From Roseateles microcysteis (GTDB lineage Bacteria; Pseudomonadota; Gammaproteobacteria; Burkholderiales; Burkholderiaceae_C), in NCBI RefSeq assembly GCF_036880965.1, contig NZ_JBAJMV010000002.1:191707-223706 (forward strand): a stretch of 32,000 bases of DNA, written 5' to 3'. Of the stretch, positions 15,055 through 29,998 are shown piece after piece. The notes below the pieces were generated by a model that did not search any database, had not been told where the DNA came from, and saw only the letters and a program-made list of their open reading frames with translations. Made by a program: the position numbers and the translations under genes. Each line of letters begins with the position of its first letter. The first letter of the stretch is position 1.

Positions 15055-15098
15055 GTGCACCTCCGGTCGTCATAGTTCGCCACATTGTGTGCACCTCC

Positions 15099-15976: not shown

Positions 15977-17139
15977 GGACAGAAGCCCGCCCGGTCCTTG
16001 CCGGAAGGCACCTGAAATGGACGCTGGAACAGCGCCAGGCCAAAACGGGTTGGATGGTGCATATCGACTGGCTCCGGTTCACGGTTCCGCTCGATGCCAT
16101 CGTCAAGCGTGAGCCTGCGCTGGTGGACCTGACGGCGCTTGACCTCCTTGAGCAGTCCGCCCGCGATGTGGTTCGCATGGCGGCAGGGGTTGAGTGCGCA
16201 GAGTACACCTCGGCTCACAAGGTTGCGGAAGCAGGGGCGCGGCTGATAGCCAGTTTGCTGGACTGTGGCATTGAGCCAGGCGAAGCGCTGGAAAAGGGCA
16301 TGGACTTCTACTCTGCCCGTGCGCCTCTCGTGTTCGCTGGCGAAACGGTCGGCTTTGTGCTGGCTGGCGGCAAGGCGACGACGCAATCCGGCACGGTTCA
16401 CGTGAACTTGTTCGGCTCTGCAATGCTGCATGTGCCGGTGGATCGCCTTGACGGCTTGCGGGAGTTCCTCGTTGCCAATGACGGCAACATAACGCGGGTT
16501 GACCTGGCGCTTGATGTGTTCGAGGGTCGGTGCATCGATGAGGTTCGCATGGCCTACCTGGCCGGCGATTTCGACGTTCGGGGCAAGCGGCCTGGTCAGC
16601 GTGAGATTGGAAGCTGGACCCTCGGGCACTCGCGCACGTTTGAGGTTGGCTCACGCCAAACCGGCAAGATGATGCGCGCCTATGAAAAGGGCGATGAAAA
16701 GCTCGGCCCGGAAGCGGACGACCCGTGGATTCGGTATGAGGTCGAGTTTCGGGACAACCATCGAATTATCGATCTTGATGTGTTGACCCGTCCGTCTGAC
16801 TTCTTCGCAGGAGCGTATGAGTTCTGCGCGGACATGCTTGAACAGTTACGCGTCAACGCCAACGCCTGCCGGATCCCGACAGTCCCGGAAGTCGCTGACA
16901 AAACAGAAGAGGCCGCAGTGCTTCGCGTTGCGCGCTGGATCAAGCGCACGGCTGCGCCGGCTCTCTCAGTTGCTCTGAGCCTGGGCGGTGATCTGCTCGG
17001 CCAGATTCTTGACCAAGAGGGTCATCGGATGCCTAAGCGCTTGCGCGGCATCAAGACGGACGCTCTCCGGTCTGCATTCGAAAAAGTCGCCGAAGCAATG
17101 GCCCCCGCTTCGTCGCCGTCGTTGAGTGGGGCTGTGTAG
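15973..17139 (+). CDS. Rolling-circle replication initiation protein, Rep_trans (pfam02486-like; RstA/gpII analogue)
   Basis: N-terminal MVHIDWLRFTVP motif characteristic of Rep_trans initiators of filamentous phages and pT181-type plasmids. First gene of the plus-strand phage operon. An alternative start is at 16054. Confidence 0.8.
   Translation: MRTEARPVLAGRHLKWTLEQRQAKTGWMVHIDWLRFTVPLDAIVKREPALVDLTALDLLEQSARDVVRMAAGVECAEYTSAHKVAEAGARLIASLLDCGIEPGEALEKGMDFYSARAPLVFAGETVGFVLAGGKATTQSGTVHVNLFGSAMLHVPVDRLDGLREFLVANDGNITRVDLALDVFEGRCIDEVRMAYLAGDFDVRGKRPGQREIGSWTLGHSRTFEVGSRQTGKMMRAYEKGDEKLGPEADDPWIRYEVEFRDNHRIIDLDVLTRPSDFFAGAYEFCADMLEQLRVNANACRIPTVPEVADKTEEAAVLRVARWIKRTAAPALSVALSLGGDLLGQILDQEGHRMPKRLRGIKTDALRSAFEKVAEAMAPASSPSLSGAV
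16331..16346. repeat. parS-like palindrome copy S1 (tgTTCGC-TG-GCGAAAC, 12/14)
   Basis: Matches GTTTCGC-NN-GCGAAAC at 12 of 14 specified positions. Lies inside rep. Confidence 0.5.
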
Positions 17140-17154
17140 TTTCGCAAGCGAAAC
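17139..17154. repeat. parS-like palindrome copy S2 (GTTTCGC-AA-GCGAAAC, perfect)
   Basis: Perfect 7-bp arms. Overlaps the last base of the rep TAG stop and sits 14 nt before the gV-position ATG. Confidence 0.75.
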
Positions 17155-17167
17155 AAAAGGAATCGAC

Positions 17168-17470
17168 ATGAAGTTTCAATCGCAGATCACCGTCGTCGGC
17201 ATGAAGGCCAACAAAGGCACGATGGAAAACGGCCAGGCGTATGACAGCACCAAGGTTTATGCGCTGACCGACCTTGACAACAGCAAGGGCATGTCCGTTG
17301 GTCAGGCGACCTCGGAATTCAACATCGGCACCAGCGATGAACTGGCGAAATACAAGCATCTGCCGTTCCCGTTCGTCGCCATGGCCGACTGCGAAATCGT
17401 CACCAGTGGCAAGGCCACGAAGACGGTGATTCACGCCATCAAGCCGTTGGAACCGGCAAAGAAGTCCTAA
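17168..17470 (+). CDS. Candidate ssDNA-binding protein (gV position)
   Basis: 100-aa ORF directly after rep, with RBS AAGGAA 6 nt before the ATG at 17168. Assignment rests on position and size only. Confidence 0.5.
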   Translation: MKFQSQITVVGMKANKGTMENGQAYDSTKVYALTDLDNSKGMSVGQATSEFNIGTSDELAKYKHLPFPFVAMADCEIVTSGKATKTVIHAIKPLEPAKKS

Positions 17471-17479
17471 GGCTTCCCC

Positions 17480-17683
17480 ATGGCGCGCTACCTCATTCAG
17501 AGCGGCTACACGTTTGAGTTCCTGCACTGGGACGAACGAACCGGGGGCGTGAATTGGACGCCTAGCCTTGCCGTCGCAATCCGTCACGGGGTCGCGTCCG
17601 ACCTGGAAGAGGTAGATCAGCTTATGCAGGATCACTGCGACCCTGGGCAGGCGTTCTATGTCGATTTGGACATGGAAACCTAG
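17480..17683 (+). CDS. Hypothetical small phage protein
   Basis: 67-aa ORF starting 10 nt after the previous stop, in the same operon. Confidence 0.45.
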   Translation: MARYLIQSGYTFEFLHWDERTGGVNWTPSLAVAIRHGVASDLEEVDQLMQDHCDPGQAFYVDLDMET

Positions 17684-17846
17684 CGTTAGGCAATGGTTCT
17701 TTGCGCCTTGCTGGCTAGTGCACCAGTAAACGCGTTTCTTGTCGCACTGTGAGGGGTTTGATATGTGGCCGTTTGCTCTGTGGTACTCGGAACCGTTCTG
17801 GTGCTTCTTCCCTGCGTTTTTCTGACGCGGTAGGTAGGTCGTCGCC

Positions 17847-18116
17847 ATGATTTGCATCCCACCGCCGCCGTCTGAAGTCATGTGTGAACCTGGGTTCGTT
17901 TGTGACCCTAGCGGCGGGGGTGCGCCTTATCGGCTTGCGGCTGGTGAGACTTGTGCGGGCTTGACCGTGTTAGAGCCTAACGATGTCCCGCCTAACCCGT
18001 TTGTGATGACGACGGAAGATGGCTTGCTTGTTAGCTCTGCCGTGGCTTCCGTGTGGTGCCTGGCGTGGGCGCTCAAGGCTATTCGCTCTGTTCTCAGTGA
18101 CAACTCGTTGGAGTAA
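17847..18116 (+). CDS. Small membrane protein, minor coat (pVII/pIX-like) candidate
   Basis: C-terminal TM plus basic tail LLVSSAVASVWCLAWALKAIRSVL. An internal ATG at 18006 would give a 36-aa product of pVII/pIX size. The stop lies 2 nt before the next gene. Confidence 0.45.
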   Translation: MICIPPPPSEVMCEPGFVCDPSGGGAPYRLAAGETCAGLTVLEPNDVPPNPFVMTTEDGLLVSSAVASVWCLAWALKAIRSVLSDNSLE

Positions 18117-18118
18117 TC

Positions 18119-18424
18119 GTGGCTGATATCACTTTGATTCAAGGGGCTGGTGTGACGGTTGCGGCGGTTGGTGCGGCTGTGTTTGTTGTTCATGTCACGT
18201 TGGCCATTAACCGTTGGCTGCGCGATGTGTTGGGCTACGGATGGGACTACACGGCTACAGATTTGCACGGGGATGCTTCAGGTGAGGGGCCGCCTCCGGA
18301 CGAATGGGGGGATACGGAGCCTGCTGAAGAAGTGGGTGGGAATCCCAATCCAACGTTTGAAGATGACGACGGCAGAACGTGGGTTGTCGATCACAACGGC
18401 GACTGGGTTGTGAAGTCATCGTGA
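18119..18424 (+). CDS. Leaderless coat-protein paralog with an acidic Pro/Gly/Asp-rich C-terminal tail
   Basis: GTG start. Residues 2-38 (ADITLIQGAGVTVAAVGAAVFVVHVTLAINRWLRDVL) align with the mature major coat protein (TDLTAITGAGTEIAAVGGAVFVVMVGIKLVKWIRRAL) at about 19 of 37 identities. Confidence 0.6.
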   Translation: MADITLIQGAGVTVAAVGAAVFVVHVTLAINRWLRDVLGYGWDYTATDLHGDASGEGPPPDEWGDTEPAEEVGGNPNPTFEDDDGRTWVVDHNGDWVVKSS

Positions 18425-18492
18425 ATTTACGAATCGGGCTCGACGCCGATACGGCTCGATTCGTCCATACCTTTTCGGCGCGGAGATTGAAG

Positions 18493-18678
18493 ATGAACAA
18501 GAACCTCGTTCGCGGCCTGGTTGCCGCTGGTGCCCTGGTTGCCGCTGGCGCTTCGCAAGCTGCAACGGACCTGACCGCCATCACTGGCGCGGGTACTGAA
18601 ATCGCGGCTGTGGGTGGCGCGGTGTTCGTTGTGATGGTCGGCATCAAGCTGGTCAAGTGGATCCGCCGCGCCCTGTAA
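18493..18678 (+). CDS. Major coat protein (pVIII-like) precursor
   Basis: 61 aa with RBS GGAGA. Signal peptide MNKNLVRGLVAAGALVAAGASQA, then a short N-terminal segment, a Gly/Ala/Val TM helix and a basic C-terminus KLVKWIRRAL. This is the classic inovirus coat architecture. Confidence 0.85.
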   Translation: MNKNLVRGLVAAGALVAAGASQAATDLTAITGAGTEIAAVGGAVFVVMVGIKLVKWIRRAL

Positions 18679-18691
18679 GCGCAGCTGGTCC

Positions 18692-18709
18692 GGCCCTTCG
18701 GGGCCTTTT
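18692..18709 (+). terminator. Short hairpin terminator after the coat gene
   Basis: GGCCC-TTCG-GGGCC followed by TTTT, 14 nt after the coat stop codon. Inoviruses commonly attenuate transcription after gVIII. Confidence 0.5.
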
Positions 18710-18711
18710 CC

Positions 18712-18727
18712 AATTCGCATGCGAAAC
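18712..18727. repeat. parS-like palindrome copy S3 (aaTTCGC-AT-GCGAAAC, 12/14)
   Basis: Contains the 12-bp perfect palindrome TTCGCATGCGAA. Lies between the coat terminator and the pIII-like start. Confidence 0.6.
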
Positions 18728-18790
18728 GTGCGCATTGCAAAAGAGGCAAGTCATGGGAATTTGGGTATGTGTCGCGCTGCTGGGGGGTCT

Positions 18791-20248
18791 ATGGATCGTG
18801 CTTCGCGATTAGTCGCTTGTGTCATGGTGTGGGCGCTTCTAGCGTTTGCGCTGGTGGCGCTTTGCTCGCCGGCCTATGCCATAGGGCTTGCTTCGCGTGA
18901 AACCGTGACGACGTATGTAGGTAAGTGCAGTTCGTCGAGCGTTGCCGACGTAACCTCTTCTTCGTCTGCCGGTGCGACGGCCGCGTGTCTTGCTAATTGG
19001 ACTTGGACGGGCTCCGTCTACATTAACGGCTGCACGCGGGCTGTCACGCATGTGGCCTTCATTCATCACGTCGACGCCCTTAGCACGCCTGGAAATTTCA
19101 GGCATTTCATTTACGCCAATCGGACGTATGCCACGCCTGGGACGTGCCAGCCGCAGCCGGCAGACGTGGCGCAGTTTGGGCATGTGGACGTGCTAGCGAC
19201 GACGGCAACGAGTTGCGTTTCGGGCTCGTCACTTATCGCCGGGACCACGGACAAATGTCAGTGCGATCTTGGGCAGAAGCCTGACCCCGCAAACCCCGGT
19301 AAGTGCGTGCCTTACACATGCGCGGCGCCTGGCACGTACTCGGCTGTCACTCAGCCGGACCAACTCGTGCCAAATGCTGGCGATCTGCAATGCGATCAGG
19401 GCTGCGAGAACAAGCCGTCAAGCTGGAAGGCTGGCGCGGACGGCAAGATATGGGCTACGTGGCCGTTTGTGTCTACCGGGAAGACCTGCGGCGGCGCTAA
19501 GTCGGCAACGGCACCGGCTTACGACACGGGGGATTTGAATAATCTCAATCCTGCGCCCGTTGCGTGTCCGGCGAATCAATGTCCGGGCTCAGTTAACGGC
19601 ACAAATGTTTGTGTGGCCTGTTCTGGAACCAAGGTCGAAGGGCCTAGCACGGCTGCGAGTGGCACCACGCCGGCCAATGATGGCTCGGGGTCGATCAAGT
19701 CCGAGAACAAAACAACCGAGTGCACGGGCACCAGTTGCACGACGACGACCACGTACAAAGACGCGAGTGGAAACACAGTCGGCACCAAGACGGAAACCAA
19801 GGATCAGAAGTCCTTCTGTCAGGAGAATCCGACTCTGAGCATCTGCAAAGAATCCGCTTTTGGCGGTAATTGTGCGGGTGGCTTCACCTGTAACGGGGAC
19901 GGCGTGCAATGCGCGCTCGCTCGCGAAGTGCACCGGAACAACTGCGAATGGGCGAAGCAAGACCCGGGCATGAAAGGCGCATGGGATAGCGCCGTCGCAA
20001 ATGCCGGCCAGGCTCAACCCCCAGGGCATCCAGGCGCAGAAGGTGAAGTTACGTCTATGTCGTTCGCGTCTGCCATTGATCAAACAAACCGCCTGGGTGG
20101 CGGCTGTCCCTCGGATGTGTCTATTTCCTACGCTGGCAGAAGCTGGGTAATTCCATGGTCCCAGCACTGCGACAAGCTGCAACTAATCGGTAATTTGATG
20201 GTGTCCGTCTGCATGCTTGCGGCTGCCTTCATCGTCTTTAGGAACTGA
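18791..20248 (+). CDS. Minor coat / host-attachment protein (pIII-like)
   Basis: ATG at 18791 with a G-rich RBS. Signal peptide MDRASRLVACVMVWALLAFALVALCSPAYA, Cys-rich domains separated by Thr/Ser/Gly linkers, and a C-terminal membrane anchor LIGNLMVSVCMLAAAFIVFRN. Sits between the coat and pVI-like genes. Confidence 0.7.
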   Translation: MDRASRLVACVMVWALLAFALVALCSPAYAIGLASRETVTTYVGKCSSSSVADVTSSSSAGATAACLANWTWTGSVYINGCTRAVTHVAFIHHVDALSTPGNFRHFIYANRTYATPGTCQPQPADVAQFGHVDVLATTATSCVSGSSLIAGTTDKCQCDLGQKPDPANPGKCVPYTCAAPGTYSAVTQPDQLVPNAGDLQCDQGCENKPSSWKAGADGKIWATWPFVSTGKTCGGAKSATAPAYDTGDLNNLNPAPVACPANQCPGSVNGTNVCVACSGTKVEGPSTAASGTTPANDGSGSIKSENKTTECTGTSCTTTTTYKDASGNTVGTKTETKDQKSFCQENPTLSICKESAFGGNCAGGFTCNGDGVQCALAREVHRNNCEWAKQDPGMKGAWDSAVANAGQAQPPGHPGAEGEVTSMSFASAIDQTNRLGGGCPSDVSISYAGRSWVIPWSQHCDKLQLIGNLMVSVCMLAAAFIVFRN

Positions 20249-20249
20249 T

Positions 20250-20552
20250 ATGCCAGCACTACTTATCGCGGCCCTTTGGGGTGGTCTGATTCAGGTTCTA
20301 GGTACGCTCGTCGGTAAGGTGCTGGTGTCCCTTGGCATCGGTTATGCCGTTTTCTCGGGGGTCGATACCTCGATCACCTGGGCACGCGATTACGTCATTT
20401 CGCAGATTTCGGCGCAGCACGCCCAGACCGTGGCAGCCGCAAGCGCCTGTAAGGTCGGGGTGTGCATCTCGATTCTTACTAGCGCGCTAGTGGCACGGCT
20501 GACCATCAACGGCCTAACGGGTGGCAGCCTGAAGCGCTTCAAGGTGAAATAG
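20250..20552 (+). CDS. pVI-like minor coat protein (DUF2523-like)
   Basis: 100-aa multi-TM protein MPALLIAALWGGLIQVLGTLVGKVLVSLGIGYAVFSG, starting 1 nt after the pIII-like stop. Size, hydrophobicity and position match the DUF2523 proteins that precede zot in inoviruses. Confidence 0.65.
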   Translation: MPALLIAALWGGLIQVLGTLVGKVLVSLGIGYAVFSGVDTSITWARDYVISQISAQHAQTVAAASACKVGVCISILTSALVARLTINGLTGGSLKRFKVK

Positions 20553-20561: not shown

Positions 20562-20577
20562 GTTTCGCTTGCGAAAC
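20562..20577. repeat. parS-like palindrome copy S4 (GTTTCGC-TT-GCGAAAC, perfect)
   Basis: Perfect arms, in the 24-nt gap between the convergent pVI-like and zot stops. Overlaps the last base of the zot TAG stop. It is the reverse complement of S2, with identity extending over 19 nt (GTAGTTTCGCAAGCGAAAC). Confidence 0.75.
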
Positions 20578-21566
20578 TACTCGACCTTTCGCTCGTTGTG
20601 TGTCGGCACGGCGTGCACTGCCTGCTGCTGCCAGGCGATGAAGAACCCGCCATCAGCAATGCGCCTACACAGGTCCTCCACCATTTCTAGCGCCGTTCCC
20701 TGCTGGCTGTAGCACCTGCACTTGTCTTTGTTGGCAATGCAGGCCGCAGGGTAGGGCGCCTGCGTCGGTTTCGTCACTTCGTCGTAAATTGGCGCGGTGT
20801 GGGGCAGGCCGTCAACGCGGGGCGTGTGGGCCTGCGCATATTGAACCGGCGTTAGTGTCTCGCGCTGGGCTGGCCGCTGGTTATTGCCTCCCATGGATTG
20901 GCGTTGGTCGGCAGTTATGCCTGCCTGTGCATCCATCCGCGCTTGTACGTTTTCTGGCTTCATCCGGTGGTACGCAAACCAGACAAGTGCGGCTAGAACT
21001 ACAGGCAGGGCTAGCAGGATCCAAACGCGCATGGGAATGCGCCGTTTCACCGTGTGAAGCTCTGCCGACTGGTACAGGTCAAAAACGTCTTTCGGATACT
21101 TCCACTCATGGCGGATCGATCCATCGCGGCTCGATGCGACGTTCTCTTTTACGCCGTTCGGGAATTCATGGATCGTCGCTCTGTGCGTGCCGAACTTGCG
21201 CACTACGTGAAAATGCCGGTCCACCAGACGCCGGACAAAGCTGTCCATCAGCATCGGGTTTTGCGTGATGACGACGAAATCCAGCCCCAGGTGGCGATGG
21301 GTTGCTAGGTTGTTGATATGTGGCGGCGGCTCGCCTCGGCCACGAACCGGAAACGGTTTCTGGCACTCGTCGATGACCATGATTGCGCCAGCTGGGAGCT
21401 TTTCCCAATCCTCGGCCGGCCACTCTTGCCATCCGGGGATATTCAGGCCGCGAATGCTGTTGTGAAAGACCGGCCGTCCTTCCTTGATGGCCGAGTCTTT
21501 CCACCGGGCGAGCGCATACAAGGTCTTGCCGTGGCCTGGCAGGCCGGTGATGAGCGTAATCGGCAT
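20577..21566 (-). CDS. zot: Zot / pI-like phage assembly P-loop NTPase
   Basis: MPITLITGLPGHGKTLYAL Walker A, VIDECQ Walker B, central TM VWILLALPVVLAALVWFAY and a Cys-containing C-terminal domain. The ATG at 21566 is 1 nt after the parB-like stop. It is on the opposite strand to all other morphogenesis genes. Confidence 0.85.
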   Translation of the reverse strand: MPITLITGLPGHGKTLYALARWKDSAIKEGRPVFHNSIRGLNIPGWQEWPAEDWEKLPAGAIMVIDECQKPFPVRGRGEPPPHINNLATHRHLGLDFVVITQNPMLMDSFVRRLVDRHFHVVRKFGTHRATIHEFPNGVKENVASSRDGSIRHEWKYPKDVFDLYQSAELHTVKRRIPMRVWILLALPVVLAALVWFAYHRMKPENVQARMDAQAGITADQRQSMGGNNQRPAQRETLTPVQYAQAHTPRVDGLPHTAPIYDEVTKPTQAPYPAACIANKDKCRCYSQQGTALEMVEDLCRRIADGGFFIAWQQQAVHAVPTHNERKVE

Positions 21567-21567
21567 G

Positions 21568-22407
21568 TCAGACCTCGGCGCCGTCGATCTGTTCGCGGAT
21601 CCAGTCGTGTCCGCCGAGTGCTTGCAGCTTGCGGAACTGTTCCGGCGATAGGTCAAGCTGCACCTTATTGAACAATTCGGTCTGTTCTTCGCTTTCGTCG
21701 GTGCCTTCGTCGTCTGCCTGTTCTGCGGCGGCTTCGTCCACCGGATCCGCCTTCAGTTTCGCAAGCGAAGCGCGAACGTCTGCGCGGGCCAGCTGCTCAT
21801 TCATGGCGCGGGTGAGGAGGGCGTTAAGCACTCGCGGCGCGTCTTCGTTCTTGCTCTTGGCAATCTGATTGAGCGTATGCAGAATTTCGACATCGTTCAC
21901 GGCATCGCTGTCGATCAGCGTGCGGACGCGGCTGTCAAAACTCGGGCTTGTCAATGCAAGGTGTTTGCTCACCCATGCCGGCGACTTGTTCACGCGCTTC
22001 GCGACCTCGGCGGGCTTCTTGTAAACGTTGAACAGCTTGCGCACGCCGTCTGCGGTGTCGGCCAGGTTCAAGCCTTCGCGTTGCAGGTTCTCGGCCAGCT
22101 GCACCTCAGTGATGGCGACGGGCTCCTGGTCGACGATCATTGCCGGGATGCGCTCCAGCTTTGCCAGGCGAGCGGCTGCGGTGCGGCGGTGACCATACAA
22201 GACGATGAAGCCTTCATCGGCTTCGGGATCGCGGCGGATCACGATAGGCTGCAAGACGCCATATTGCTGGATCGATTCGGCCAGCTGGCGCAGGCTCTCT
22301 TTGTCGAACCCGTTTCGCGTGCGAATCTGTTCGTGGGTGGTGATGAGGGAAAGCGGAACCAGCTTGACGGCGGCGAGGTCGGCGACTGCATGAGTAGCGG
22401 TGTTCAT
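21568..22407 (-). CDS. ParB/KorB-family protein (N-terminal ParB/Srx domain plus HTH); no cognate ParA
   Basis: ATG at 22407 with AGGAGA 7 nt upstream. Motifs LQPIVIR, YGHRRTAAARLAKLERIPAMIV (the GxRR arginine patch) and HTH PAEVAKRVNKSPAWVSKHLALT. Acidic C-terminal tail. Confidence 0.8.
   Translation of the reverse strand: MNTATHAVADLAAVKLVPLSLITTHEQIRTRNGFDKESLRQLAESIQQYGVLQPIVIRRDPEADEGFIVLYGHRRTAAARLAKLERIPAMIVDQEPVAITEVQLAENLQREGLNLADTADGVRKLFNVYKKPAEVAKRVNKSPAWVSKHLALTSPSFDSRVRTLIDSDAVNDVEILHTLNQIAKSKNEDAPRVLNALLTRAMNEQLARADVRASLAKLKADPVDEAAAEQADDEGTDESEEQTELFNKVQLDLSPEQFRKLQALGGHDWIREQIDGAEV
21756..21771. repeat. parS-like palindrome copy S5 (GTTTCGC-AA-GCGAAgC, 13/14)
   Basis: One mismatch. 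Lies inside the 3' part of the parB-like gene. Confidence 0.6.
22312..22327. repeat. parS-like palindrome copy S6 (GTTTCGC-GT-GCGAAtC, 13/14)
   Basis: One mismatch. Lies inside the 5' part of the parB-like gene. Confidence 0.6.
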
Positions 22408-22545
22408 GTGCGAATCTCCTGAAGTGAGGCGCCCGGGATGGGATACCTTCAGAAGATGCTTCCTCGCTCCCGCCTTGGGGCGGGCGGGGGGTGGGGGCGT
22501 CGCGCTAACGTACAAAAGGGCGCAGCTGCCGCTACACCCGATTAA

Positions 22546-22705: not shown

Positions 22706-23155
22706 TTACCGTGAGGCGGTGGCAGCTGGTGCGATAGGGATCGTTACCCGGACGGGCCGAGATCCTCGAGGAGCTTGGTGGCGAAGCCATAGAGCCCGGC
22801 CCGAAGGGATCGCCGGTCCTGCGTCGTTGGCGCATCCGAAGTCGGCGATTCGGGCCAGCTGCGCGAGCTGGGCGCGTAGACGGCGGTTCTCTGACTTCTC
22901 GGCCATGGCCTGGCTGTACATCATCTTCGCCTGATTTTCGGCGTCGGCATTGGCCGCGGATCGGCCCCAGCGTGTGAGCCAGAACAGCGCGAGCAATACG
23001 GGGCGCGGCGCGAAATTTTCGCGGCGGTAGGTCTGCACGGTGCGGACGGAAATCCCGAGCGCCTTGGCGATCGCGGCGTTTGAGGGCTGGCCGAGGTCGT
23101 CCAGGATCTGGCAGAAGTCGGGCGTACAGGTCGGGCTAGGCAATTTGTGGGGCAT
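22706..23155 (-). CDS. HTH protein, candidate XafT-like (HTH + DUF3653-like) Xer activation factor, inovirus copy
   Basis: ATG at 23155 preceded by AAGG. HTH AAIAKALGISVRTVQTYRR followed by APRPVLLALFWLTRWG. About 40% identical over roughly 100 aa to the divergent ORF at 23314-23781. Confidence 0.55.
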   Translation of the reverse strand: MPHKLPSPTCTPDFCQILDDLGQPSNAAIAKALGISVRTVQTYRRENFAPRPVLLALFWLTRWGRSAANADAENQAKMMYSQAMAEKSENRRLRAQLAQLARIADFGCANDAGPAIPSGRALWLRHQAPRGSRPVRVTIPIAPAATASR

Positions 23156-23267
23156 GGCGAATACCTTCGTCAAGCCAGGCGCGCTGCCTTAGGTGTACGT
23201 CTTGCGTATTGCAAACGGGCCAGGATTCGTGCCAAGAGCCGTGCCATGTAGGCCCATTTGGCAGTTG

Positions 23268-23279
23268 ACATAATACACA
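23268..23279 (+). repeat. Direct repeat ACATAATACACA, right copy (junction between the two prophages)
   Basis: Exact copy of 14694-14705, in the context aGTTGACATAA-TACACA-ttgtcgtgaaa. Lies in the 158-nt divergent gap between the two paralogous HTH genes. Confidence 0.6.
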
Positions 23280-23313
23280 TTGTCGTGAAAAGGTAGGCAG
23301 TGTATGGTCTTCC

Positions 23314-23781
23314 ATGTTAGCGGCTACTACGAAACTCCCAAGTCAGGCAATAAGCAAAAAACCAAGTTGCCCCAGGGAGTCCGAATTGATAGCCAGCTTA
23401 AACCGCCAATCCTTGCCCGATCTGGTCACACTTCTCGCCGATCTTGGGAACCCGCCGCCACGGTGCATCGCCCGTGCGCTAGGCGTTACAGAACGAACCG
23501 CCAGGCGCTGGATTCAGGCCGAGCATGCGCCACGCGCCGCCATGCTGGCCTTGTTCTTCTGCTCGACCTGGGGGCTTTCCAGCGTCAACGCGCAGGCCGT
23601 GAACGAAGCACAGCACGCTGCGGCCATGGCCGCAGCGCTGGCCCGCGAGGTTGCGCAGTTGCGCCGCGAGCTGGCTCGGCTCGCGGCAATTGGTGAGTTC
23701 GGTTCGGCCAACGCTCCCGCGTTCAATGCCGACACGCCCGCGCAGCTCTTGCGGCGCAGGCCGATGCTCAACGGCGCTTGA
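23314..23781 (+). CDS. HTH protein, candidate XafT-like (HTH + DUF3653-like) factor, second-element copy
   Basis: RCIARALGVTERTARRWIQ HTH, then APRAAMLALFFCSTWG and a coiled REVAQLRRELARLAAIGEFG segment. Paralog of 22706-23155. An alternative TTG start at 23386 (GGAG 6 nt upstream) would match the paralog's length. Confidence 0.55.
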   Translation: MLAATTKLPSQAISKKPSCPRESELIASLNRQSLPDLVTLLADLGNPPPRCIARALGVTERTARRWIQAEHAPRAAMLALFFCSTWGLSSVNAQAVNEAQHAAAMAAALAREVAQLRRELARLAAIGEFGSANAPAFNADTPAQLLRRRPMLNGA

Positions 23782-23837
23782 AGCGGCCGTTCTTTGCTCG
23801 TGCTGGGGTCTTGCTCTTGCGCTTCTTTGCCATGGCT

Positions 23838-23996
23838 TCAGCCTTTCAGGTTGTCGATTCGTGCGTGTGCTGCGCGGGCGCTCTCCAGCGCATGCGATGC
23901 CCGTTCATTGAGCCGCGCCAGGTCGGCCCGAATGCCGGCATAGACGCTGGCAGCGAGCGCCGCCTGTGGCAGCAGTTGCAGCAGCCAGTCAGGCAT
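23838..23996 (-). CDS. Small protein (52 aa), hydrophobic N-terminus plus coiled segment; lysis-module candidate
   Basis: MPDWLLQLLPQAALAASVYAGIRADLARLNERASHALESARAAHARIDNLKG. Its ATG overlaps the upstream stop (TGATG). Below the ORF-track length cutoff. Confidence 0.4.
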   Translation of the reverse strand: MPDWLLQLLPQAALAASVYAGIRADLARLNERASHALESARAAHARIDNLKG

Positions 23997-24163
23997 CAGC
24001 TCTGCGCCTTCTCGGGCGCCAGGACGGCCACCAGGCCGGCCACGCCGGCAATGACCTGGCCGGCCAGGTCAACGGTGCCAGGCGGCAAACCGAAGATCAG
24101 GCCGAGGGCCGAGATACCGGCCCAGGTGCTGGGCTCGCGCAGGCGCTTCAAAAATTGCTTCAT
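23996..24163 (-). CDS. Small membrane protein (55 aa)
   Basis: MKQFLKRLREPSTWAGISALGLIFGLPPGTVDLAGQVIAGVAGLVAVLAPEKAQS. Two hydrophobic segments. Starts 3 nt after the upstream stop. Confidence 0.45.
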   Translation of the reverse strand: MKQFLKRLREPSTWAGISALGLIFGLPPGTVDLAGQVIAGVAGLVAVLAPEKAQS

Positions 24164-24166
24164 GGT

Positions 24167-24454
24167 TCAGCTCCAGAGGTAGGAAAGAAAGTCCTTTGCC
24201 GGACAGGCAAAGGATGCGTCCCAGGTGCGGCCCTCGGCCTTCGCCTTCTCGCACTCGGTGAGATTGGTTTCAGGGATGCCAACGGCCTTTCCGATGGCGA
24301 TGGCGCCACCTGATACGGTGCCGTCCACCAGGTCAACGGCCGCGCCGCCAATGGCCGCGCCGGCTCCCTTGAAGCCGCCCTTGTAGGCCACCCAGGCGAG
24401 CGCCAGGACGACTGCGCCGCCGGCTGCCAGGTAGACGGGTGGAATGCGCGCCAT
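24167..24454 (-). CDS. Small membrane protein (95 aa)
   Basis: N-terminal TM PPVYLAAGGAVVLALAWVAY and a Gly/Ala-rich segment. Starts 2 nt after the upstream stop. Confidence 0.55.
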   Translation of the reverse strand: MARIPPVYLAAGGAVVLALAWVAYKGGFKGAGAAIGGAAVDLVDGTVSGGAIAIGKAVGIPETNLTECEKAKAEGRTWDASFACPAKDFLSYLWS

Positions 24455-24456
24455 GG

Positions 24457-24639
24457 TCAGAAATAGACCTTCGTCGGGTCCCAGTTGGGGTTGTCGGACG
24501 GGTTGACCCGGCCGCCGCCAGCGCGCACGCCGGCCGCCGTTTTGGCGGTGCCGCCCGATGCCTTGACGATCATCCAGACAGCCACGGCGGCCAGGCCCAG
24601 GACGATGAGTTCTGTTTTCTTCATGGTCACGCCTTTCAT
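24457..24639 (-). CDS. Small membrane protein (60 aa; alternative start at 24624), holin-like candidate
   Basis: MKGVTMKKTELIVLGLAAVAVWMIVKASGG. The ATG at 24639 overlaps the SLT stop (ATGA), and a second ATG at 24624 has an AAAGG RBS. The track ORF extension to 24780 overlaps the SLT gene. Confidence 0.5.
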   Translation of the reverse strand: MKGVTMKKTELIVLGLAAVAVWMIVKASGGTAKTAAGVRAGGGRVNPSDNPNWDPTKVYF

Positions 24640-25235
24640 GCGTAGTCGGTGCCGGCCGTGCTGTTCACGTCCGCGAGGATTTGCCCGAAGTAGTTGCGGG
24701 TTTCGCGTGGCGCCGCCTCCAGGCCCTTGCGCGACACATTGCCCATTCCCCAGTTGTAGGCGGCCAGCGCTTCCGACCAATTGCCGAAGCGGTTGAACAG
24801 GCTTCGCAGGTAGCGCGCAGCGGCCGGGATTGCCTGGGCCGGGTTCAGCGGGTCGATGCCCATATCCCGCGCCGTGGCGGGCATGAACTGGGCGATTCCC
24901 AGCGCGCCGGCAGGGCTGCGCGTGGCGCCGCTGATGATGTCTTCTCTGTACCGGCTCTCTTGGTACAGCAGGCGCTCGAGCATCAGCGCCGGCAGGCCGT
25001 TGTCCTGCTCGGCCTGCGCGATCAAGCCTGCGTAGCGTTCAGGCGCCCGCCAGAGCTGCAAAAGGTTCACCGTCTTGCTCACAATCGTGTCTCCCACATC
25101 TGCGGCCGACTCAAGCCAGCCGCCACCATCTGCCGGCGCCGCATCCGGCGCCGCCTCTTCTTGTCGCTGCCGGTACATGACCCACGCGCCCACGGCCAGC
25201 AGGCCGGCAGCACCGATCAGTACAGAGCCGCGCAC
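24636..25235 (-). CDS. Membrane-anchored lytic transglycosylase (SLT domain)
   Basis: GTG start and an N-terminal TM. Catalytic and structural motifs LLYQESRY, GALGIAQFMPATA and AAYNWGMGNV. Confidence 0.85.
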   Translation of the reverse strand: MRGSVLIGAAGLLAVGAWVMYRQRQEEAAPDAAPADGGGWLESAADVGDTIVSKTVNLLQLWRAPERYAGLIAQAEQDNGLPALMLERLLYQESRYREDIISGATRSPAGALGIAQFMPATARDMGIDPLNPAQAIPAAARYLRSLFNRFGNWSEALAAYNWGMGNVSRKGLEAAPRETRNYFGQILADVNSTAGTDYA

Positions 25236-25238
25236 CCG

Positions 25239-25574
25239 TCAGCCCCCTCGCCGCGTGCGCGCAGCCTTGGCGGCCGTTTCCTTGCCCTCCAGATAGGCCA
25301 CGTCGGCGCCGACCTTCTTTGCGATGGCGATAAACACCTCGCGAGCCGTGCGGCTCATGCCGGTGTCTCGGTCGATCTGTTCTAGCTCGACGCTCGCCGC
25401 CTCGGCATCGCTGGGAGGAACCGCAGCGACTGCAACGAAGGCCGCACCGTCCCAGCGCTTGCCGATAGGTGCCGCGCCTGGTGCGAGTTCGATCATGGTC
25501 GGGCTGTCCACCTTGCCGCCCAATTCAGACACGCCAACGCAGATGCCGGCGCCGTTGATCTGTGCGTATCGCAT
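25239..25574 (-). CDS. Hypothetical protein (111 aa)
   Basis: ORF coupled to both neighbours (1-nt and 3-nt junctions). No recognisable motif. Confidence 0.5.
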   Translation of the reverse strand: MRYAQINGAGICVGVSELGGKVDSPTMIELAPGAAPIGKRWDGAAFVAVAAVPPSDAEAASVELEQIDRDTGMSRTAREVFIAIAKKVGADVAYLEGKETAAKAARTRRGG

Positions 25575-25915
25575 CAGTTGCTCTCCTGGATCTGCCAGCG
25601 CACAACCATTCGCTTGTACGTGTTCAAGGTGCCCGAGAAAATCCGCATCGTCGTGGCGTTCACAAAGTAGGCCTTCGGCAGGCTGGCGCTTGTGTTGAAT
25701 CGGCCCACGCGGCCCGCTGTGTTTGCTGTCGTTGTGGCTGACGCATCGTCACCCACCACACCATTCAAAAGAATCACCGCCTTGGCCGTATTGACGGCCG
25801 CGACTGTCACGTCGATGTAATGGCCCTCAGGTTCAGTTCCTGCGGTCAACCCCGCCTGGTCAACGTCCACCAGGCCAGATTGCACCTTGAAGCCGCTGCT
25901 TGCACCAATGCCCAT
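25574..25915 (-). CDS. Beta-rich hypothetical structural protein (113 aa), vertex/spike candidate
   Basis: Alternating hydrophobic pattern typical of beta-sandwich proteins. Lies within the structural operon. Confidence 0.5.
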   Translation of the reverse strand: MGIGASSGFKVQSGLVDVDQAGLTAGTEPEGHYIDVTVAAVNTAKAVILLNGVVGDDASATTTANTAGRVGRFNTSASLPKAYFVNATTMRIFSGTLNTYKRMVVRWQIQESN

Positions 25916-25918
25916 GCG

Positions 25919-26500
25919 TCAGCCCTCCAGCACGGCAACGGCCGTCGTTGCGCCGCTGCCGATCACATTGATTTGCCCCGTAGGCGCTCGGCCCTGGATC
26001 TCCAGGGATTGACCGGGCGGGAGCTTCACGCCGTTCGCCACGGTCGCGGCCGTGCCGTCCAGGCGCAGATAGATGGTCACGCCCGCATCGTTGTTCTGGA
26101 TCAGCAGATAGCGGCGGTTCGCATTGGCCGCCAGCAGCTGGCCGGATGCGCCGGTCACGTTGCCCAGCGTCTGACTGAAGCCGCCGTTCTCGTTTTTCAC
26201 GGTCACGGTGCCGGTGATGTTCACGGCGCCAACTGCGCGGTCGTAGCTGACCTGGCCGCCCATGCGCGTGACGATGGAGACCACGCCGCCCGCCACGCTG
26301 GTGATTCGCACGCGATCAAACTTCAGCGACTCGCTGTACCCGGCGCCGACGTTTTGCACGTCGGCGACTTCGCGGCCCTGAAAGTAGAACTTGAGCGCCA
26401 CATCCTCGGCCGCGCTGGACAGGACCCGCAGGAAGTCACCGGCCTCGTTTATTTCCTTGGCGCCAGCGGCGCCGGCCCCCATGTTCTCGTTGAAGTACAT
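25919..26500 (-). CDS. Beta-rich hypothetical structural protein (193 aa), spike/receptor-binding candidate
   Basis: Gly/Val/Thr-rich beta-strand pattern (VNITGTVTVKNENGG, YLLIQNNDAGVTIYLRLDG). Lies within the structural operon. Confidence 0.5.
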   Translation of the reverse strand: MYFNENMGAGAAGAKEINEAGDFLRVLSSAAEDVALKFYFQGREVADVQNVGAGYSESLKFDRVRITSVAGGVVSIVTRMGGQVSYDRAVGAVNITGTVTVKNENGGFSQTLGNVTGASGQLLAANANRRYLLIQNNDAGVTIYLRLDGTAATVANGVKLPPGQSLEIQGRAPTGQINVIGSGATTAVAVLEG

Positions 26501-26509
26501 CGCGTGCCT

Positions 26510-27268
26510 TTACTTCTTCCAGGCCATGAGCGCGAAGGCCGCAGCCGCCGCCAGGCCCAGGATGGTGATGGTCTTGTTATCGAGGCTGCCGCTCTTCTCG
26601 GTGGTCGCGCTGCGGTAAGCCTCGGTGGTCAAGGCGCCGACGTTCTCAACGGCCTTTATGTTGCTGTCGAACATGGATTTACCCAGCGATAGCAACTGCG
26701 AGAAGCCGGCTCCGACCGTGGCGTTTGACTTCTCTGCAAACGCAAAGGCTTTGTCCTGCGATTCGCGCTGGGCGTCAGCCAGTTCGCTCGCCGACGAACG
26801 AGCGAACCCGAGCGCGTCTTTGTTGGCCGTGGCAGCAAAGCCGAAGGCTTCAGAGCCGAAGCTAAACGCCCGGTCCGTGGTCTTGGTGTTGGCCGTGATC
26901 GCGGTTTCCATGGCGCGCAGCGCGCCAGGGTCGAACTGGTTGACCGATCGGTTGCTGTTGTCGGTGTACTTGACCGACGAATCCGAAGACGACGACGACG
27001 AGCGGTTGCTGCTGTCGTTAACCGTCAAGTCCATCATGGTTGACAGGTTGCGGCTGTCGTTCACGTTGACCGATTGGTCCCGCGTGTCGGTGATGGCAAT
27101 GGAGCTGCCGCCCGTGGCGCCCAGGCTTCCATCCCCCAGCACCAGGCGGTTATCCAGCGCCGTGCTGGTGTTTTGGGTGGATGACGAAGAGTTCGTCCCG
27201 CCCGAGTCGCCTCCGAAGCTCAGCCGGAAGGCCAGCGCCGGTATGAAGAATTTGAACAGTGCTTTCAT
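26510..27268 (-). CDS. Ser/Asn/Thr-rich membrane-associated protein (252 aa)
   Basis: N-terminal signal-like MKALFKFFIPALAFRLSFGG, low-complexity SSNRSSSSSSDSS region and a C-terminal TM ITILGLAAAAAFALMAWKK. ATGA overlap with the upstream gene. Confidence 0.55.
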   Translation of the reverse strand: MKALFKFFIPALAFRLSFGGDSGGTNSSSSTQNTSTALDNRLVLGDGSLGATGGSSIAITDTRDQSVNVNDSRNLSTMMDLTVNDSSNRSSSSSSDSSVKYTDNSNRSVNQFDPGALRAMETAITANTKTTDRAFSFGSEAFGFAATANKDALGFARSSASELADAQRESQDKAFAFAEKSNATVGAGFSQLLSLGKSMFDSNIKAVENVGALTTEAYRSATTEKSGSLDNKTITILGLAAAAAFALMAWKK

Positions 27269-27660
27269 GCGATCTGCTTTTCCAGAATGAACCCACGGCC
27301 GACGCTGCCGGCGATGCTGTATCCCAGGGCTAACGCCTTATGAACGAGCCCGCGCCTCATGGTCTGAAACGCAACGCTTGCGCAGCCCACGGCCCGCGCT
27401 TGCGCCTCAATGACGGACAAGCCCGCCTCGGTCATGCCCTGGCCGGTGCCGGCTGCCGCGTGTATCCAGCAACGGCCCGCCGCCCTGGCGCTCAGCGTGT
27501 AGATGCACGCGCCGGAATCTGTCTCGACCTTGAAGGACTCACCCGCGAGCGCCGCACTCATTGGCGTGGCCCTGCCCTGCGGGTCCAGGCCTGCGCAAGC
27601 CTTGAAGGCTTCCGCCGCCTGTTCCACGCTGGCTCTGGTCAGCGCCGCACGATGGCCCAT
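27265..27660 (-). CDS. Hypothetical protein with a possible GNAT-like acetyltransferase core
   Basis: CWIHAAAGTGQGMTEAGLSVIEAQARAVGCASVAFQTMRRGLVHKALALGYS resembles GNAT motif A/B (a Q/R-x-x-G-x-G/A-like loop, then helix-strand, then a GY/GF ending). Weak, by eye only. Confidence 0.4.
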   Translation of the reverse strand: MGHRAALTRASVEQAAEAFKACAGLDPQGRATPMSAALAGESFKVETDSGACIYTLSARAAGRCWIHAAAGTGQGMTEAGLSVIEAQARAVGCASVAFQTMRRGLVHKALALGYSIAGSVGRGFILEKQIA

Positions 27661-27950
27661 ACCGCCACCAGAGCCAGGCCCATCAAGGCCATGGTTTGCC
27701 AGTCGCCGCCCAGGCCCAGGCCCGAGGCCATGCCGTCCGCGCTGATCGGGTTGCTTTCGGTCTTGGTCTTTGTCGACGTGCTGTCGATGGTCCCGCCGCC
27801 GAAATTGACATTCCAGCCCGAGTGATCGGCCTCGAAGTCGTAGGTTCCCGTCAGGTGCGATTCGGAAGGCCCGGTAGGTGGCGTCGTGAGCGCCTTGCCG
27901 AGCACTTGGGTGCCGCCGTTGATGAGGGCGCCCATGGTCATCGGGTCCAT
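27639..27950 (-). CDS. Small virion-membrane protein candidate (103 aa)
   Basis: RBS AAGGA 5 nt upstream of the ATG. C-terminal TM WQTMALMGLALVAVWAIVRR. Confidence 0.55.
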   Translation of the reverse strand: MDPMTMGALINGGTQVLGKALTTPPTGPSESHLTGTYDFEADHSGWNVNFGGGTIDSTSTKTKTESNPISADGMASGLGLGGDWQTMALMGLALVAVWAIVRR

Positions 27951-27959
27951 GGGGGTCCT

Positions 27960-28229
27960 TTATCGCTTGGCGAGCAGCAGCACAAGCACAAGGCCCGCGC
28001 CGCCAATCAACAGCATCGTTTTCGGGTTCATGCCCGCCACGGTGCCCTGAGGCACTCCATTGCGCTGACCTTCCGCGTAATAGCTGCCCGTCTGGCCCAG
28101 GGCCTTGAGGCGCATTTGCTCAGTCTCGTAGGGCTGGACCCACTTTGCCTCGACCGCCTTGCTGATGGCGTTCCCGGCAATGTTCTGGACCCAATCGGAC
28201 CACGAGCCGGAGGTGTTTTCTCCGTCCAT
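27960..28229 (-). CDS. Small virion-membrane protein candidate (89 aa)
   Basis: C-terminal TM MLLIGGAGLVLVLLLAKR. Immediately downstream of the capsid candidate. Confidence 0.55.
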   Translation of the reverse strand: MDGENTSGSWSDWVQNIAGNAISKAVEAKWVQPYETEQMRLKALGQTGSYYAEGQRNGVPQGTVAGMNPKTMLLIGGAGLVLVLLLAKR

Positions 28230-28241
28230 GTGGTCCGTCCC

Positions 28242-29072
28242 TTACAGGTTGCCCAGCACGTCGATGTATTCGACGATCACGCTGCCGGTGTCGGCCGCGC
28301 TGAAGTCGAACAGCCATTCCAGGCTGCGCGCATCGCGGGTGTCCAGCGCCTTGCGCACGTCGCCGTCAACCACGAAGTCAATCGTGTAGACGTTGGCCTG
28401 CGGAACGCGCTTCTGGCGAGTCTGCTCCTGCTGGTTCTCAGCGGCGATGCTCTCATGCACAACGAGGCCGTCTTGCTTGACGGTCGCACCGGTCATGTTG
28501 CCGCCGTGGAACACGTGAACCCGCTTGATGATGGCGCCGTTTTGCGGGCCAAAGGGAACCGTGATCGGCAGCTTGCCGCCCGAGCTGATGTTGTACGGGT
28601 ACTTGAGGATTTTCGCCAGCAGCGGTGCGAAGGGCTGGTACTCGCCGCCCTGCGACTTCTGAGCTGCGGCCTCGGTCACGATGGGCGTGAGGATCGGGGC
28701 CGTAGCGCCCGCGATGCTCACTTCCGTGGTGATGTTGGCGATACCGATTGAGGTATCGAAGGCCGAGACCATCCGGTCAAACTCATTGTTCAGCGAGTAG
28801 TCGGCGAACGGAATGTCCAGATAGGCCGCGTTCGCAGCATCGCCGCGATAGGCGTTGATCTTGTCCAGCTCGGTGCCCGTGCCTTCGATGATGACCTTGC
28901 CGTTGGCCTTGATCTTGATGGCCGTGAGCATGGCTTTCGTCAGCGCAGTGCCGGCGAGCTTCAGCTTGAAGTTTTCCAGCGTGCGGCCGGGGGTGATGTT
29001 GTTGGTTGCGGTGCCAGTGGCGACCACATTTGCGAACGGCAGGCCGTAGCGGGTGAGTTTTCCGACGCTCAT
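28242..29072 (-). CDS. Candidate major capsid protein (PM2 P2-like double jelly-roll size class)
   Basis: 276 aa, beta-strand-rich throughout, with no TM. It is the largest soluble protein of the operon. It lies between the packaging ATPase and a run of small membrane proteins, as in corticovirus-like genomes. The fold cannot be confirmed from sequence by eye. Confidence 0.5.
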   Translation of the reverse strand: MSVGKLTRYGLPFANVVATGTATNNITPGRTLENFKLKLAGTALTKAMLTAIKIKANGKVIIEGTGTELDKINAYRGDAANAAYLDIPFADYSLNNEFDRMVSAFDTSIGIANITTEVSIAGATAPILTPIVTEAAAQKSQGGEYQPFAPLLAKILKYPYNISSGGKLPITVPFGPQNGAIIKRVHVFHGGNMTGATVKQDGLVVHESIAAENQQEQTRQKRVPQANVYTIDFVVDGDVRKALDTRDARSLEWLFDFSAADTGSVIVEYIDVLGNL

Positions 29073-29086
29073 GCTTCAGCCCTCAC

Positions 29087-29266
29087 TCAAACCACGTCTT
29101 TGACGTAGGGAACACGCTTGGCGACCGCGCCAGCAGCCACGGCCAGGGCCGCAGCCTTGACCATCGGATTGCCGTACTTGTAGGCCGCAAACAGGATGCC
29201 GCCAGCAATGGCGAGCTTCTTCAGCGATTCGGAGTCCACGTTGATTTCCTTTGAACAGTTGCACAT
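29087..29266 (-). CDS. Small membrane protein (59 aa from ATG 29266, or 50 aa from GTG 29239)
   Basis: ...VDSESLKKLAIAGGILFAAYKYGNPMVKAAALAVAAGAVAKRVPYVKDVV. AAGGAA lies 6 nt before the GTG. This replaces the implausible Arg/Cys-rich track ORF 29076..29318 in another frame. Confidence 0.45.
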   Translation of the reverse strand: MCNCSKEINVDSESLKKLAIAGGILFAAYKYGNPMVKAAALAVAAGAVAKRVPYVKDVV

Positions 29267-29320
29267 ACAGGGTTGGCCGCATCGGTTGCCCCGGTGCTGG
29301 CGTCTTGCAAGGCCTCATTC

Positions 29321-29353
29321 AAAGGAAAACGAGAACCGGGCACGAGGCCCGGT
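29321..29353 (-). terminator. Rho-independent terminator after the ATPase gene (boundary between early and structural units)
   Basis: The minus strand reads ACCGGGC-CUCGU-GCCCGGU followed by UCUCGUUUUCCUUU, 34 nt downstream of the ATPase stop. Confidence 0.6.
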
Positions 29354-29386
29354 ATCTCTTCCCGTTACCGTATGGCTCGGGCGCCG

Positions 29387-29998
29387 TCAGAAGCTCAGTT
29401 TTCCGCGCTGAATGCCTCCCGTAAGGGCATCCATGTGGACGAACTGCAACGGGGCCAGTCCGTTGATTTCCTCTATGGCTATCCGGGTCTTGCGCGCCAG
29501 GTAGGCCGCGTCGTCGCCGCTCGACTGCCGGAAGACCACGTAGTCCGAGGCATTGCCAAACGCGGTCTTGTCGGCCTCGCTCCAGCGCTGCGAGATGCAG
29601 CGCAGGGTGATGCCGCGCTTGAGGCCCCGGCGCACCAGAATGCCCCAGTTCCCCGGCGCCTTGCTTGGCGTGGTCACGTCGGCCAGCTCTTCCGCGATGG
29701 CCTCAAGCGGCTCGACATAGCGGCCCGCGTACATGACGCACCCGGCCCAGAAGTCAAACTCACCCGCCAGGCTTCCGCCCGCCACGTAGGCCACGCGCTG
29801 CGCGCCTGGCTTCTGTGCCGCTTCGAGCAGTTGTTTTCGTGTCGTGACCTTGCGCCAGCCTGGCAGCTCGCACCATTGGGCCTCAGGGTCCCACGCGAAG
29901 ATTCGCCGCGCCTTCTTGACCTGGCGGGCGGTCCATGCGGTCTTGCCGGAGCGCGAGGCCCCGGCGATCACGTACAGGCGGCCGTCCTGTGTCTTCAT
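29387..29998 (-). CDS. Genome-packaging ATPase candidate (FtsK/HerA-like, PM2 P9 / PRD1 P9 class)
   Basis: 203 aa from the ATG at 29998 (ATGA overlap with the upstream stop). Walker A YVIAGASRSGKT, Walker B-like LEAIAEELAD and no TM. The track ORF's 74-aa Gly/Arg-rich extension is rejected. Confidence 0.65.
   Translation of the reverse strand: MKTQDGRLYVIAGASRSGKTAWTARQVKKARRIFAWDPEAQWCELPGWRKVTTRKQLLEAAQKPGAQRVAYVAGGSLAGEFDFWAGCVMYAGRYVEPLEAIAEELADVTTPSKAPGNWGILVRRGLKRGITLRCISQRWSEADKTAFGNASDYVVFRQSSGDDAAYLARKTRIAIEEINGLAPLQFVHMDALTGGIQRGKLSF

Follow-up and report, generated by a model that had tools for sequence, protein, structure and literature searches.

Which factors allow integrase-free viruses to enter a bacterial chromosome at dif, and are two related genes found back to back at such a site among them? 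The question is raised by a 32,000-nucleotide stretch of Roseateles microcysteis DNA, referred to hereafter as the window. It is chromosomal DNA, and one protein encoded in it, that of gene A, is 100% identical to an R. microcysteis protein at NCBI. Within the window an inovirus prophage meets a PM2-like (corticovirus-like) prophage of the double jelly-roll (DJR) type at a dif-like site, and each prophage places a small helix-turn-helix (HTH) gene beside that site: gene A (22706-23155, minus strand) in the inovirus and gene B (23314-23781, plus strand) in the DJR prophage. The two genes belong to a family for which we use the working name F0. Our reading, to which we give a probability of about one half, is that F0 proteins are accessory or activation factors for the host recombinases XerC and XerD, possibly acting as regulators also. 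Gene position, synteny and the anatomy of the attachment sites, together with a probable remote homology, lend good support to a functional analogy with XafT, XafV and P15 of phage PM2.

Two elements meet at a hybrid dif-like site

The 28-bp hybrid junction (23263-23290, plus strand) consists of the XerD-type arm of the inovirus, AGTTGACATAA, the central region TACACA and the XerC-side arm of the DJR prophage, TTGTCGTGAAA. The inovirus ends with gene A (149 aa), 108 bp from the XerD-type arm; gene B, 155 aa as delimited above, is the first gene of the DJR prophage and is convergent with all the other DJR genes. A preliminary description of the locus had called the two genes clear paralogs that face away from the dif-like core. 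Both points hold, with the coordinates and strands that it gave: A and B share 45 identities over 105 residues (43%, BLASTP E 3e-22) and are transcribed outward from the site. The left junction of the inovirus (attL, 14689-14716, plus strand) is made up of a host XerD-type arm, TGTTTACATAA, the central region TACACA and a degenerate arm derived from the inovirus, CACGGTCCGTC. The sites at 14689 and 23263 have the XerD-type arm and the central region in common, and their other arms are unrelated. The inovirus occupies the span between them. Dif-like sites at both ends, the lack of an integrase among the ORFs scanned and a host XerD-type arm on the outer flank mark it as an IMEX, a mobile element that integrates by exploiting Xer.

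A contig from another sample and sequencing run (L040) shows how the array formed. It is 99.86% identical to window positions 23264-32000, and its left end reads GCTTGTTTACATAA-TACACA-TTGTCGTGAAA, which joins the left host flank of the window straight onto the DJR arm and gene B, free of the inovirus. Because L040 carries the DJR prophage and gene B alone at the same host flank, the junction parts two independent elements, with A the last gene of the inovirus and B the first gene of the corticovirus-like element, as had been proposed. The DJR prophage was the resident element, and integration of the inovirus into its left junction yielded the divergent gene pair. The attP of each element has the canonical arm on the F0 side, the common central region and a degenerate far arm. 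A scan for promoter and terminator consensus sequences around the junction found nothing.

The same contig bears on the start of gene B, since it has AGG in place of the ATG at window position 23314. Because this ATG is absent from L040, and because the N-terminus of the family also fits, gene B more probably starts at the TTG at 23386, which would give a protein of 131 aa.

Architecture of F0 proteins

In protein A an XRE-like HTH (residues ~12-46) is followed by a helix with the invariant LALFWLTRWG motif (51-64) and by a long helix (62-103); the protein also has a DFGCAND motif and a disordered tail. The AlphaFold model (predicted local distance difference test score, pLDDT, 83) is all-helical and free of strands, with a three-helix HTH at 14-46 followed by helices at 51-58 and 62-103. 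In the family alignment, the invariant residues (LALFWLTRWG..N and FGxANxP) fall outside the DNA-recognition helix. Long members of 300-500 aa have low-complexity extensions only and no extra Pfam domain. One member (P0042, 265 aa) is a natural fusion of two complete F0 domains in tandem, which fits F0 as a dimer.

The DNA that encodes the C-terminal tail of A has a feature of its own. Two blocks at 22730-22814 (plus strand), TGCGATAGGGATCGTTACCCGgAcGGGCCGAGA and ATAGAGCCCGGCCCGAAGGGATCGCC, are ~79% identical to Pseudomonas inoviruses of the Pf1/Pf4 type, where the counterpart blocks sit at the PA0719/PA0720 (gene 5) boundary. The blocks are able to pair around a variable hairpin and may be a conserved single-stranded DNA element, for example a packaging signal or an origin. 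They had no Rfam match, the fold z-score (-0.44) was unremarkable and the pattern was not found in the other loci described below.

F0 genes adjoin attachment sites in Burkholderiales

The F0 family amounts to 992 clusters at 50% identity (E<=1e-3). No match to A was found by tblastn among 50,697 GenBank phage records. To place the family in its genomic context we used 34 genome loci obtained from a motif-seeded scan (one conserved peptide pattern, one genome per species). All 34 are in Burkholderiales (Roseateles, Rubrivivax, Ideonella, Methylibium, Aquabacterium, Curvibacter, Pelomonas and others), and 23 of them have a dif-like site shortly upstream of the F0 gene, at a distance of ~30-200 bp.

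The sites take two forms. In the A-type order, a degenerate XerC-side arm is followed by the central region, a canonical XerD arm, ~90-190 bp and then the gene; it is found in the window inovirus, in a lone inovirus (L008), in L044 and in DJR prophages of R. aquatilis, R. violae and Methylibium. The B-type order is the mirror image (degenerate XerD arm, central region, XerC-side arm, ~30-95 bp, gene) and is found in the window DJR prophage, one R. violae DJR prophage, inovirus L043 and many small elements. In L008 the outer arm, ATTTCGCACAA, gives the canonical host XerC arm. We initially described XerC-side arms of the form TTGTCGC.. as degenerate and dropped the term; such arms occur on both sides of the small elements described below, whose hosts seem to use them as the functional arm. 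The canonical arm, TTGTGCGAAAT, is seen in L008.

The arrangement in the circular phage is preserved in L044, a complete, circularly permuted inovirus of 6709 nt whose Zot open reading frame (ORF) is continuous across the contig ends. Its intact attP, CGGGGCCCCTC-TGTATA-TTATGTCAACC, lies between the repressor and F0. The order in the circular phage is the repressor, an attP that overlaps the 3' end of the repressor gene, and then F0. The repressor frame reads through the attachment site (window 14692-14716; L044 4797-4869), and integration thus swaps the last residues of the repressor. The attP of phage VGJ is likewise overlapped by orf154.

An R. violae contig of 9739 nt (L007) has two related but distinct DJR prophages head to head over one dif-like site (4878-4905). 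Each has an F0 gene beside the site, one A-type and one B-type.

In a crude neighbour-joining tree, F0 proteins group by the kind of element that carries them (DJR, inovirus, integrase-type or mini-element), and both site orientations are present within the DJR group and within the inovirus group. This tree gave no support to a split of A-type and B-type proteins into clades specialised for XerD and XerC, respectively. The preliminary description had seen in the gene pair a portable integration module exchanged between virus realms. A portable unit is what we find, the same gene plus attP occurring in inoviruses, DJR prophages and tiny elements; as to exchange, the tree suggests that the sharing of F0 is old rather than recent, and the concept had already been described for Vibrio.

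Minimal units of one gene and its site

In 12 loci a second site lies 0.84-2.9 kb downstream of the first, with a fully degenerate XerD arm and the same central region and XerC-side arm. Between the two sites there is F0 alone, or F0 with either one unknown 120-aa gene or a long low-complexity extension. The degenerate XerD arms (n=14) retain bases at two positions: the innermost base is A in 11 of 14 (p 1e-6) and the fifth is C in 9 of 14 (p 0.013). XafT-dependent sites must agree with dif at the first or at the fifth innermost base (PMC9226527). Retention of these same two positions supports the reading of F0 as an Xer factor.

The mini-elements may be minimal integrating elements or decay products. 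L022 has an intact F0 copy followed by a pseudogene. In L021 (9919-11730), three dif-like sites 873 bp apart bound two tandem units; the units are identical at 866 of 873 positions and each has an intact gene. After the third site of L021, no more than 38 nt of the F0 5' region precede host sequence. F0 fragments of this kind beside the innermost site speak for repeated integration and erosion in the past.

F0 is outside DUF3653 and probably related to P15

The preliminary description had proposed A and B as candidate members of DUF3653 (PF12375), the family of XafT, on the strength of a short conserved 'AL...W' segment after the HTH. As stated, that assignment is refuted. Neither protein matched PF12375 at E<=1, nor did any of 39 family members at E<=10. 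Our DUF3653 references, taken from public phage records, were VGJ ORF136/XafV, XacF1 ORF11 and PM2 P15; as positive controls the profile matched XacF1 ORF11 at E 4.5e-4 and VGJ ORF136 at E 6.4e-4. The 'AL...W' segment corresponds to the last helix of the XRE-like HTH plus the short invariant motif, not to the Pfam domain. Scans of A and B against PHROGs, NCBIfam and Pfam returned only weak, sub-threshold matches to generic HTH families. The A model had only generic HTH matches in the PDB (Foldseek, E>0.5) and no match to known Xis/AlpA structures. Against BFVD the best match was an uncharacterised Corticoviridae protein (E 1.5e-3), with no match to XafV-type proteins; because a model of P15 misses these proteins equally, that negative carries no weight. 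A six-frame search with a DUF3653 plus XafV profile found no DUF3653 ORF in the window or in 38 related loci. There was no integrase among the window ORFs scanned, and the dif-type elements are without one. The dif-type elements therefore offer no alternative candidate to F0.

The weaker idea, that F0 is XafT-like in a broader sense, stands on its position, which is that of XafV, XafT and P15, and on a profile match to P15. In PM2 Orf a (P15) the HTH is followed by WGGFYICRGGYLWTPRG and a coiled coil, and relatives of P15 are annotated as DUF3653; Vibrio DJR counterparts of P15 have been treated as XafT homologs (PMC12715192). In hhalign, F0 matched the P15 family with a probability of 89.5% (E 2e-6) over 85 colinear columns that run from the HTH to the long helix. 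Reversed and 30 column-shuffled control alignments gave at most 1.2%, and bona fide DUF3653 groups scored lower against each other than F0 did against P15 (P15 vs XafV 9%, P15 vs Xanthomonas 17%). F0 has gaps relative to P15 at a 15-residue segment and at a 6-residue segment (LWTPRG), both in the WxGF...LWTPRG region. The P15 model (AlphaFold, pLDDT 73) has the same order of helices as F0, with strands inserted at 67-87. From these profiles, F0 is a probable hairpin-less relative of P15-type proteins that lies outside the Pfam DUF3653 family.

Proposed function and alternatives

We propose that F0 is the part of a lysogeny module that adjoins the attachment site in elements using host XerC/XerD and not an integrase of their own. 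F0 would dimerise via the long helix, its HTH would bind near attP, and the invariant surface outside the HTH would recruit or activate XerC/XerD. Recombination between a one-armed attP and dif could then be independent of FtsK, as it is with XafT and XafV in Vibrio. F0 may be a transcription regulator as well. Because its start codon can sit only ~30 nt past the arm, its expression would probably depend on the sequence across attP and hence be altered on integration. A bolder version, which we offer tentatively and would not ourselves wager on, makes F0 a third kind of Xer activation or synapsis factor, free of the hairpin and serving attachment sites without a XerC or a XerD arm; with its 28-bp site it would form self-sufficient units of ~0.85 kb, the smallest IMEXs, that accumulate beside dif in Burkholderiales.

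Several results weigh against a role of F0 in Xer recombination. The published description of DUF3653 is that of a hairpin bearing LTG/WAGFxF/TPE motifs (bioRxiv 10.1101/2024.03.19.585677), and XerD activation by XafT has been credited to this hairpin (PMC6744903). The hairpin (W-x-G-F...G..L-x-T-P-x-G) is absent from the F0 alignment and from the A model. Compared by hhalign, the F0 alignment reached a probability of 0.14% with Xanthomonas DUF3653 (a few HTH columns only) and 0.3% with XafV of VGJ (HTH columns only). The homology to P15 is probable and not proven, since most of its signal is due to the HTH (52% alone) and to the coiled coil (4.7% alone). Six of the 34 loci, none with a dif-like site, carry F0 in elements ordered GPA-Rep, F0, excisionase (DUF4224/phrog_4764), tyrosine integrase, tRNA. 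The F0 proteins of these elements keep all the family motifs, so that the conserved function is not strictly Xer-specific. The mini-elements could be decay remnants, as pseudogene copies and 5' fragments occur alongside them. The narrow basis of the locus scan counts on the same side.

The six loci include elements of ~6 kb at tRNA genes (L010 6200-12130, L013, L009, L024 and L012) with a GPA-type rolling-circle Rep, F0, excisionase and integrase, which look like relatives of the dif-type elements that rely on an integrase instead.

A purely or additionally regulatory role of F0 has to be taken seriously as an alternative. If F0 were only a transcription factor of the lysogeny switch (similar to Cro, CII or P15), it would lie beside attP since lysogeny genes cluster, and Xer recombination would proceed free of a phage factor or via FtsK. 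An HTH with a dimerising helix is typical regulator architecture, generic HTH families are the only ones matched in Pfam, and F0 is also present in integrase-type elements that have a separate excisionase. Repressor-like genes are commonly retained in prophage remnants, as F0 is in the small units; these units, however, end exactly at attL/attR-like sites and not at random deletion ends. P15 itself has been called a transcriptional regulator (PMC12715192). A pure regulator would leave sites with one fully degenerate arm as poor Xer substrates unaided, and in vitro 'XerD failed to bind TLCphi attP' (PMC9226527). Nor would it be expected that the most conserved residues lie outside the DNA-recognition helix, or that a proven Xer activator occupies the homologous slot in VGJ. 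On this evidence we regard regulation as the sole function of F0 as possible and do not favour it.

The unchanged motifs in dif-type and integrase-type elements, together with the annotation of two members as AlpA-like by the Joint Genome Institute (JGI), would also suit a general architectural or directionality factor for tyrosine recombinases, one that bends DNA at att, for example, and serves XerCD in dif-type and the integrase in tRNA-type elements. This is unlikely. The integrase-type elements already encode the DUF4224/phrog_4764 excisionase between F0 and int, their F0 gene is 1.4-2 kb from the att site and does not adjoin it, and the F0 model matched no known Xis/AlpA structure in the PDB; F0 is thus not the element's own Xis/AlpA factor. 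Finally, genes that are adjacent and divergent, as A and B are, might have come from a local tandem or inverted duplication in one element or from an assembly artefact. L040, with B and the DJR prophage alone at the same host flank, and L044 refute this; moreover the A-type module occurs in lone inoviruses (L008, L044), A and B are only 43% identical, and R. violae has such a divergent pair again, between two DJR prophages. We consider such an origin very improbable indeed. An Xer accessory or activation function therefore remains our preferred reading.

Subversion of XerCD by integrase-free phages and islands is understood almost entirely from Vibrio cholerae, through the DUF3653-containing XafT and, as of 2026, XafV. 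If F0 is an Xer factor, a family with the same slot and layout but without DUF3653 would show which part of the factor is needed. F0 is found in freshwater and soil Betaproteobacteria, where it is linked to attachment sites that lack one arm or the other; the lysogeny module of inoviruses and membrane viruses would then extend past marine Gammaproteobacteria, and F0 would be a simple marker for finding dif-integrated elements. The sub-kilobase units of gene plus site offer a test system of very small size. Should F0 be no more than a regulator, the finding shrinks to the annotation of a new family and a well-resolved tandem prophage array.

Other features of the window

Host genes extend to ~14.6 kb (GC content 64-67%) and are followed by the two prophages (57-64%). 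The cumulative GC skew turns at ~24-25 kb, which fits what is expected near the replication terminus. A tandem glycine riboswitch with two aptamers (56.6 and 54.7 bits) lies at 6393-6616 (minus strand), upstream of a minus-strand gene at 5214-6365.

The inovirus repressor (14692-15060, minus strand) is an XRE-type HTH protein that matches phrog_638 (E 2.5e-11) and Pfam HTH_3. It is followed by a plus-strand replication and structural block (15973-20552), in which the genes for a Rep_trans initiator (15973-17139) and a phrog_4994 protein (17126-17470) precede those for a pIII-like protein (18719-20248) and a pVI-like protein of DUF2523 (20217-20552). The Zot-like assembly ATPase (20577-21656, minus strand) and a ParB/KorB-like protein (21568-22515, minus strand) are encoded on the same strand as gene A, opposite and convergent to the Rep/pIII/pVI block, which is unusual for an inovirus. 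L008 has an A-like gene and then ParB, as in the window, without a detectable Zot; in L044 Zot is on the usual strand.

The body of the DJR prophage (23838-32000, minus strand) continues past the window edge. Its minus-strand genes include an SLT lysin (24636-25235), the major capsid protein (28242-29072; phrog_8536), whose counterpart in L040 carries Pfam P2_N/P2_C, the packaging ATPase (29387-30220) and a GPA-type Rep (Phage_GPA; 30942 to beyond 32000), which runs off the window. The right end of the prophage is outside the window, and L040 also ends before the right junction. Exact-protein look-ups with the DJR capsid protein and with B gave no match, and a metagenome pattern scan for the DJR right junction found none.

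Comparison with known systems

Among the closest known systems is the module of PM2. Work on Vibrio published in 2025 described a lysogeny module common to inoviruses and DJR phages, with tandem arrays at dif, and gave the P16-attP-P15 module of dif-type DJR prophages an ancestry in common with RstR-attP-XafT of Vibrio CTX-I inoviruses; PM2 has a one-armed attP between p16 and p15 (PMC12715192), with the sequence ATTTAACATAATATAAA. F0 resembles P15 in its colinear HTH, core and long coiled-coil helix. Like the P15 module, the F0 module has its gene convergent with the end of the late/structural genes and a one-armed attP with the XerD-type arm on the gene side and the repressor across it. The tandem array of the window recalls those of inoviruses and DJR prophages at dif in Vibrio. 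Unlike P15, F0 is without the WxGF...LWTPRG segment and fails PF12375; its hosts are Burkholderiales, compared with Vibrio or Pseudoalteromonas for PM2-type modules. F0 also has a mirror form, in which the gene lies beside the XerC-side arm with a degenerate XerD arm, and it occurs in integrase-type elements and in elements of <1 kb. What is new here is the hairpin-less family, the betaproteobacterial range, the mirror-image one-armed sites, the sub-kilobase units and the integrase-type relatives.

Inovirus DUF3653 proteins of Xanthomonas and Stenotrophomonas share the position of F0 and not its sequence. Like gene A, those for XacF1 ORF11 and PSB15 of phiLf-UK come after a phrog_638 repressor on the minus strand of an inovirus that integrates at dif. 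In contrast to F0, the DUF3653 proteins of Xanthomonas and Stenotrophomonas are HTH-free, with DUF3653 at the N-terminus, and no similarity to F0 was detected. Integration does not require PSB15, which binds the packaging signal (bioRxiv 10.1101/2024.03.19.585677).

Experimentally shown Xer activation factors are XafT of TLCphi (PMC6744903; PMC9226527) and, since June 2026, XafV, the product of VGJ orf136 (bioRxiv 10.64898/2026.06.12.731946). F0 has no DUF3653 and no detectable sequence relation to XafV beyond the HTH. It shares with both factors an N-terminal HTH and a gene directly beside attP. The repressors of the window inovirus, VGJ and XacF1 all belong to phrog_638 (E 8e-50 for VGJ orf154 and 5e-43 for XacF1 ORF12), and the order of repressor, attP and gene in the window is that of orf154, attP and orf136 in VGJ. 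The degenerate XerD arms of TLC-like attPs keep the first and fifth innermost bases, as do most of those at F0 loci.

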